A stretch of 64,000 nt of DNA from Antedon mediterranea (Eukaryota; Animalia; Echinodermata): contig NC_092671.1 of NCBI RefSeq assembly GCF_964355755.1, forward strand, positions 32,312,304-32,376,303, in the 5' to 3' direction. The notes beneath the pieces were generated by a model, which saw only the letters and a list, made by a program, of their open reading frames with translations, was not told the DNA's origin and ran no database searches. Shown here one piece after another: positions 6,441 to 6,482 of the stretch. Both the position numbers and the translations under genes were made by a program. Within the stretch, counting starts at the first letter, position 1; the number at the start of each line of letters is the position of its first letter.

Positions 6441-6482
<42 letters not shown>
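6441..6482 (+). other. 42-bp copy of the 28S R2 target site (-41 to +1) in IGS1
   Basis: AGCGCGGGTAAACGGCGGGAGTAACTATGACTCTCTTAAGGT is identical to intact 28S (e.g. 14750-14791). Confidence 0.95.

Follow-up and report, generated by a model that had tools for sequence, protein, structure and literature searches.

The nearest described parallel to the locus presented here comes from Drosophila ananassae, in which a 22-bp copy of the R1 target was reported in the rDNA spacer, the units concerned carrying one R1A and seven R1B elements (PMC2718515, Stage and Eickbush 2009). For R2, which is reported only from animals (PMC5035012), the Bombyx protein (R2Bm) was found to read two zones of the 28S target, RUM at −34..−22 and RASIN at −6..+1 relative to the nick; cleavage was severely lowered by changing T-6, T-5 or A-3 and abolished by a change of T+1 to A, contacts began at −38, the sequence +6..+37 was dispensable for nicking and the spacing tolerated only +1 (PMC10499050). 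Lineage-A R2 proteins are described as having a more extended upstream contact, probably with no downstream binding, and as remaining on the upstream DNA after both nicks (PMC12180492), and lineage-A off-target insertions match 4–5 nt of 3′ homology (PMC12222951). On the 5′ side, R2 ribozymes cut 9–36 nt upstream, mostly at −28, with duplications of equal length, and the 5′ junctions often bear 21–26-bp 28S duplications (PMC3774820). The specificity data come from Bombyx and bird R2 and not from the element resident at the present locus. A 2026 review (PMC13580325) counts among the open questions how hosts have tolerated R2 for hundreds of millions of years.

No published report of an R2-target copy in a spacer was found in the main texts searched, most of the subscription literature being outside reach, and none is mentioned in the available parts of PMC13580325, PMC10946416, PMC10257491, PMC13188248, PMC5035012, PMC7650587, PMC3414825, PMC12203849 and PMC13486585. 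The idea is less novel than was supposed at first, a spacer copy of the R1 target that is used by R1 having already been published (PMC2718515).

A copy of the R2 target in every rDNA unit

The 64,000-nt stretch of Antedon mediterranea DNA that was analysed (the window) consists of rDNA units in tandem, with seven 28S and six 18S genes. In each of the seven units, a 42-bp match to the 28S R2 target, extending from −41 to +1 relative to the R2 nick, was detected in the spacer. The distance from the 28S end to the copy was 232–250 bp, which bears out the first-pass annotation (all seven units, −41..+1, about 240 bp after 28S), and the copy was located about 1.4 kb downstream of the genic R2 site. 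No match to the copy was obtained in 100 shuffles of the sequence. The copies are listed below.

6441..6482, + strand: spacer copy of unit 1 (−41..+1), identical to the gene
16148..16189, + strand: spacer copy of unit 2, identical to the gene
26280..26321, + strand: spacer copy of unit 3, identical to the gene
35985..36026, + strand: spacer copy of unit 4, identical to the gene
45685..45726, + strand: spacer copy of unit 5, identical to the gene
54115..54156, + strand: spacer copy of unit 6, haplotype B, single change at −6
63684..63725, + strand: spacer copy of unit 7, haplotype B, single change at −6

The earlier description of the copy as homogenised holds for the five units in which it was identical to the gene, but not for units 6 and 7, in which a T>A change was present at −6. 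The upstream motif, for which the range of −31..−22 assumed at first has to be corrected to −34..−22 (PMC10499050), was intact in all seven copies. The nick-motif bases −6, −5, −3 and +1 were correctly spaced in five of the copies and −6 was altered in the remaining two, so the claim that both R2 motifs lie inside the copy applies to every unit for the upstream motif and to five of the seven for the nick motif. After +1 the sequence departs from 28S: no 28S match was found at +2..+5 and a gapped extension past +1 was not significant (p = 0.14).

In the three of the six complete spacers that were compared with the whole 18S–28S region, no other rRNA piece longer than 12 bp was found, the next longest exact rRNA match being 12 bp. 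The copy ends at the R2 nick, and the probability that a random piece stops no more than one base away from it is 0.0005–0.0008.

Two further features accompany the copy in the region behind the 28S gene:

6318..6389, + strand: 9-bp tandem repeat between the 28S end and the spacer copy, 7–9 copies per unit
6498..6524, + strand: T-tract 15 bp after the unit-1 copy, function putative

The T-tract comprised 20–27 T in six units and was broken after 11 in one. It may be a Pol I release element, which would put the spacer copy inside the 3′ external transcribed spacer. Several resemblances of the flanks of the copy were considered and rejected, since a scar-like extension past +1, a likeness to the R2 5′ junction, an 8–9-bp match to the inserts and a left fold-back were all within chance (p 0.08–0.9). 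Elsewhere in the spacer, a block of ~190 bp was present 6–7 times (6740–9230 of the window and equivalents), with 5-bp microsatellites in between. The blocks resemble the promoter region (89% to the last copy) and are likely to be spacer promoters. The 18S gene at 9684–11488 contains motifs that we take to be echinoderm-like.

Units 6 and 7 represent a second spacer haplotype, in which three further linked changes were found at 6227, 6230 and 6264. As the copy is present in both spacer haplotypes, it is older than the haplotype split. Between the haplotypes, one change was observed in the 42-bp copy, as compared with three in the 183 bp of unique sequence beside it (p = 0.57). At the low power of this comparison (P(0) = 0.5), no sign of selection on the copy was seen within the window. 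The sole change inside the copy falls on one of the four critical bases (chance about 0.1) and fits loss of cutting being harmless or favoured.

Resident R2 and the genic sites

The genic R2 sites of the window were found in different states:

2745..5123, + strand: lineage-A R2 of 2,379 bp with an internal deletion, occupying the unit-1 genic site
14750..14791, + strand: empty genic R2 site of unit 2; other empty ones at 34578, 44296 and 62286
24345..24914, + strand: R2-type short non-autonomous insert in unit 3, 570 bp
53489..53490, + strand: junction at which unit 6 has lost ~1.23 kb of 28S (−510..+722) together with the genic target

In the unit-1 R2, a part with the zinc fingers in the order ZnF3-2-1 and the Myb region is joined at about 4350 to the endonuclease region, and the reverse transcriptase is absent. 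The N-terminal part aligned with the three zinc fingers and Myb of R2Tg (E 7.7e-28) and the C-terminal part with the R2Tg endonuclease (E 9e-16). The Pfam search gave sub-threshold zinc-finger and Myb hits only, and the N-terminal piece used as a protein query gave no match among the longer proteins. The resident R2 is of lineage A (three zinc fingers plus Myb) and not of the Bombyx D type. A cognate R2 is present in the genome: its lineage-A domains were found in the window, and contigs of three runs from one sample depart from the element at 4350, on either side of which they carry other sequence, loose ends which indicate that longer copies exist. No loose ends were seen in these contigs at the 3′ terminus of the element, so its 3′ junctions were out of view, and no insertion into the spacer copy was observed in them.

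The unit-1 R2 (2745–5123) departed at about a dozen positions from a sequence on which the contigs were unanimous, and it is either an older, diverged copy or affected by consensus errors. In a contig of run X2, the R2 3′ region was joined at 4829 of the window to spacer pentanucleotide repeats, either through a true rearrangement or as a chimera of the library. A second X2 contig, in which unrelated sequence was joined at 5079 to the 3′-terminal part of R2, suggests a further family sharing the R2 3′ end.

The unit-3 insert consists of two diverged tandem copies of a ~300-bp unit with 73% column identity. Its last 62 bp are 89% like the R2 3′ end and its 3′ junction is a canonical R2 one. Blocks of conserved sequence shared by its halves hint at an RNA with structure. 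The second half opens with 28S −36..−25, a 26-bp antisense piece of 28S is present at 24538–24563, and a 101-bp 28S deletion precedes the insert. Such deletions and displaced 28S pieces show that short stretches of 28S are shuffled in the array in connection with R2. A search with strict and relaxed HDV-like ribozyme descriptors revealed none at the R2 5′ end, in the short insert or at the spacer copy, a weak test because the descriptor failed on the R2 element itself, so that a local cut near −40 is possible. No ribozyme was found with Rfam at R2 or the short insert.

None of the seven spacer copies was occupied, as compared with two of the six surviving genic sites, the seventh having been deleted. 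The occupancy counts given in the first-pass annotation were thereby reproduced, but the difference was not significant (Fisher p = 0.19) and carries little weight as evidence.

R2-site fragments in spacers from metagenomes

Metagenome contigs were scanned with a motif of the 28S 3′ end that excludes vertebrate-type 28S ends, and 102 loci were obtained from 20 of 64 parts (~380 stretches estimated); an earlier, narrower pattern had given 0 loci. Judged by 18S signatures, the set is presumably rich in copepod-like and nematode-like loci. At least 500 bp behind the 28S end were available for 70 loci and less for 32 of the 102. Three loci (L008, L033 and L051) were dropped, the motif being followed in them by DNA other than spacer, leaving 67 spacers in 52 clusters (88 kb), which were searched with the rRNA references of the window and 21 locus-derived ones.

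Fragments of rRNA fell into nine of about 56 bins, with a pile-up in three. The bin of the R2 site led with 6 of 52 clusters (L004, L006, L007, L029, L034 and L071), the other 46 having no such copy, followed by five clusters at 28S +513..+570, three at 18S 1096–1172 and six single hits. Shuffling (ten times) gave at most one per bin, and the probability of at least 6 of 20 in a preset bin is between 1e-6 (56 bins) and 4e-5 (30 bins). In a 28S tree, to whose loci no taxon names could be assigned, L029, L034, L071 and the window were placed on long separate branches, and the L071 copies share a variant with the 28S gene of the same locus; both observations indicate that the copies arose in place. 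The outside copies belong to animals that are likely unrelated. On sequence comparison, the window copy is one case of a recurring pattern and not a one-off.

The left edges of the longest copies in the six clusters were located at −41, −38, −38, −37, −37 and −26; in five of the six they agree with the R2Bm contacts, which begin at −38, and not with the usual ribozyme cut at −28. One of the L004 copies has the same limits as the window copy (−41..+1), and the L071 copies run unbroken across the nick (−38..+29). Mean identity over the six clusters was 0.85 in the upstream motif, a value inflated because the copies were found through this motif, 0.63 in the linker, 0.56 in the nick motif, 0.36 at +2..+21 and 0.26 at −50..−42. 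All four critical bases were kept in 7 of the 15 copies scored. In the long copies of L004 and L071 the changes were evenly spread (p 0.3–0.5), the comparison of read and free positions in L006 gave a borderline p of 0.04–0.07, partly through search bias, the L029 copy has lost the nick motif and the L007 copy lacks most of the upstream motif. The tblastn search for R2 in the 102 loci gave no hit. The HDV-like descriptor detected nothing in eight of the nine outside copies and one weak 5-bp fold in L029.

Among the six outside clusters, a clear signal free of search bias was observed in L034 only. Two copies are present there at about 270–520 of the spacer, both with intact upstream and nick motifs and with the spacing kept; apart from −17 and −16 their sequences are the same, and they are not independent. 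All 17 positions defined in the literature as read were kept, whereas 10 of the 18 free positions were changed (p = 0.00024). In the linker, 9 of 15 positions were changed and the alignment needs offsetting gaps; at −7..+4, 10 of 11 bases match in exact register (chance about 1e-5). This pattern is likely a mark of selection, and L034 would be the clearest candidate for a selected R2 decoy.

Other rRNA fragments were also observed in these spacers. The L006 spacer contains at 647–732 a reversed 86-bp copy of 28S −1464..−1379, a region presumably near the R9 site of rotifers, and a 5S rRNA gene was found on the opposite strand inside the rDNA spacer of L072 (693–811). The copies of 28S +513..+570, numbered from the R2 nick, were 22–57 bp long and occurred in five clusters of a related group (loci L012, L015/L036, L027/L068 and L052/L062/L072), which by its 18S signature is presumably copepod-like; this hotspot may mark the target of another site-specific element. 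The copies of 18S 1096–1172 were found in three clusters (L047, L064/L066/L074 and L079), which by their signatures are presumably nematode- and copepod-like. R8 is reported to insert in 18S (PMC5035012). No coordinates of the R8 and R9 targets were found in the literature searched.

Discussion

The spacer copy is real, and its tie to R2 is well supported, as it is the sole rRNA piece above 12 bp in the three spacers compared, ends at the nick and belongs to the leading hotspot elsewhere. Its recurrence, its footprint-like limits and the L034 pattern make a decoy the best single reading, in which a 28S fragment made by R2 would have been kept as a docking site outside the coding region; we place its probability a little short of even. 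The protein-protected upstream end of the target may have been clipped during R2 cutting or insertion and patched into a break behind the 28S end, and such protein-protected capture is favoured by the left edge at −41, which lies beyond the ribozyme cleavage range (−9 to −36). R2 would bind the spacer copy, perhaps nick it, and prime poorly since the divergence starts at +2; the 4–5 nt of nicked DNA from +2 with which the RNA of a lineage-A R2 would pair are absent in the copy. With the read zones present and the sequence from +2 onward absent, the copy should hold the expected lineage-A grip and lack the sequence for good priming. Any insertion into it would leave 28S intact and the R2 binding sites per unit would be doubled. 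Selection for fewer disrupted 28S genes could then spread the copy by concerted evolution, the −6 variant possibly being a bind-only or cut-resistant form. Indirect support for the decoy function comes from L034, in which the read bases and the spacing were kept while the linker decayed. Against it, the −6 change in two of the seven units means that an intact nick motif is not required there, and a doubling of sites would be a modest titration.

The local data of the window fit a young neutral fossil equally well. A by-product of R2, either a clipped fragment or a relic 5′ junction, could have landed once and spread by concerted evolution, with R2 cutting even favouring loss of the copy, as the −6 variant may show. 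Its identity to the gene would then reflect nothing more than its youth, and decay would follow. The rate of change in the copy equals that in its flank, the R2 machinery of this array shuffles 28S pieces (the 101-bp deletion, the −36..−25 head and the 26-bp antisense piece), 28S duplications of 21–26 bp are frequent at R2 5′ junctions (PMC3774820), and R2 sites would gather fragments through mutation bias even without selection. Left unexplained by it is L034, where the motifs and their spacing outlasted the linker; moreover, left edges beyond −36 exceed the reported ribozyme extensions, the L071 copies (−38..+29) cross the nick unbroken and so are not a junction, and no R2 or short-element sequence was detected beside the window copy (anchored extension p 0.08–0.68; longest matches p 0.13–0.9). 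A neutral fossil is quite possible, though on balance somewhat less likely than a decoy.

If R2 nicked or inserted at the copy without loss of 28S, the copy could instead be a domesticated break site, from which the host gains R2-driven recombination for rDNA copy number, or else a safe harbour that offers R2 a transcribed site within intact units. Given its place ahead of the T-tract, the copy is likely transcribed, and it includes the 28S bases that R2 ribozymes use; +1..+4 were kept in L034 and L071, and the break site at the yeast fork barrier is similarly positioned. In Drosophila, R2 supports the maintenance of rDNA copy number, a benefit that may be lineage-specific (both reviewed in PMC13580325), and the spacer site of D. 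ananassae is associated with R1 insertions (PMC2718515). Since none of the seven copies is occupied, +2..+5 are absent and −6 is lost in two of the seven, we consider both forms of this explanation improbable. A host element, either bound by a Pol I terminator of the Myb type or acting as a hairpin signal in the RNA before the T-tract, is very unlikely. Its position near the T-tract behind 28S would suit a terminator, Myb-type Pol I terminators of the TTF1/Reb1 kind being known, and the tandem short copies of L034 at 270–600 bp look like terminator boxes. The same sequence is present in the same orientation inside 28S, however, where it would block transcription, the copies of L004 and L006 are found in either orientation and at distances of up to 2.5 kb, and the bipartite upstream-plus-nick pattern fits R2 and not a single Myb site, so the terminator alternative raised in the first-pass annotation is disfavoured. 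The copy does contain a 28S hairpin, presumably helix-69, but its loop bases are changed in L004, L006 and L071 and the folding of the region is not superior to that of shuffled sequence (z = +1.15). Although rDNA arrays are hard to assemble, an assembly artefact is scarcely credible: the copy occupies the same position in seven units that have variants of their own, in two haplotypes with a linked change inside the copy, and a run from the probable source sample, which is not independent, has all 21 sampled words of the stretch.

The decoy reading can be widened to the proposal that animal rDNA spacers repeatedly evolve selected target-mimic decoys against site-specific retrotransposons, each a short copy of just the bases read by the protein of the element, acting in cis and independently of piRNA, with R2 as the commonest case; we regard this as a somewhat less than even prospect. 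A spacer decoy, if true, would be a simple host counter-measure, and 28S occupancy should then be lower in the presence of copies. From decayed copies one could learn the bases an R2 reads in vivo, and long-lived ones, as in L034, could serve as natural mutagenesis maps of element specificity. Were target-mimic decoys general, the two other hotspots would mark the targets of further rDNA-specific elements, some of them undescribed. R2-based gene insertion, at present achieved at the cost of a 28S copy, could also profit directly from a site outside the 28S coding region. Should the copies be neutral, their recurrence still offers a means of detecting past or hidden rDNA-specific elements from the spacer sequence alone.

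Comparison with known systems

The two genic inserts fit the description of SIDEs (Eickbush and Eickbush 2012, PMC3414825) in having an R2 3′ end, a canonical 3′ junction and no intact ORF, although no HDV-like ribozyme could be folded for them; this likeness covers the genic inserts and not the spacer copy. The duplications at R2 5′ junctions (Eickbush, Burke and Eickbush 2013, PMC3774820) are, like the spacer copy, pieces of the upstream target ending at the nick, but they are reported as 13–26 bp long, tandem, attached to an element in the genic site and bounded by the ribozyme at −9 to −36, whereas the window copy is 42 bp long and free-standing, with no element attached. With the canonical R2 target (Wilkinson et al. 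2023, PMC10499050) the copy shares RUM in all seven units and both motifs with their spacing in five, and it differs in lying outside the gene, in having no 28S sequence from +2 and in the change of T-6 in two of the seven. The R1 case of D. ananassae is alike in that a short 28S piece, the target of an rDNA-specific non-LTR retrotransposon, is present in the spacer. It concerns R1 and 22 bp, and in the available part of the report it is given as a curiosity with no function proposed (PMC2718515). The piece described here, in contrast, is a 42-bp copy of the R2 target that is present in all seven units, unoccupied, stops at +1 and recurs in other lineages.
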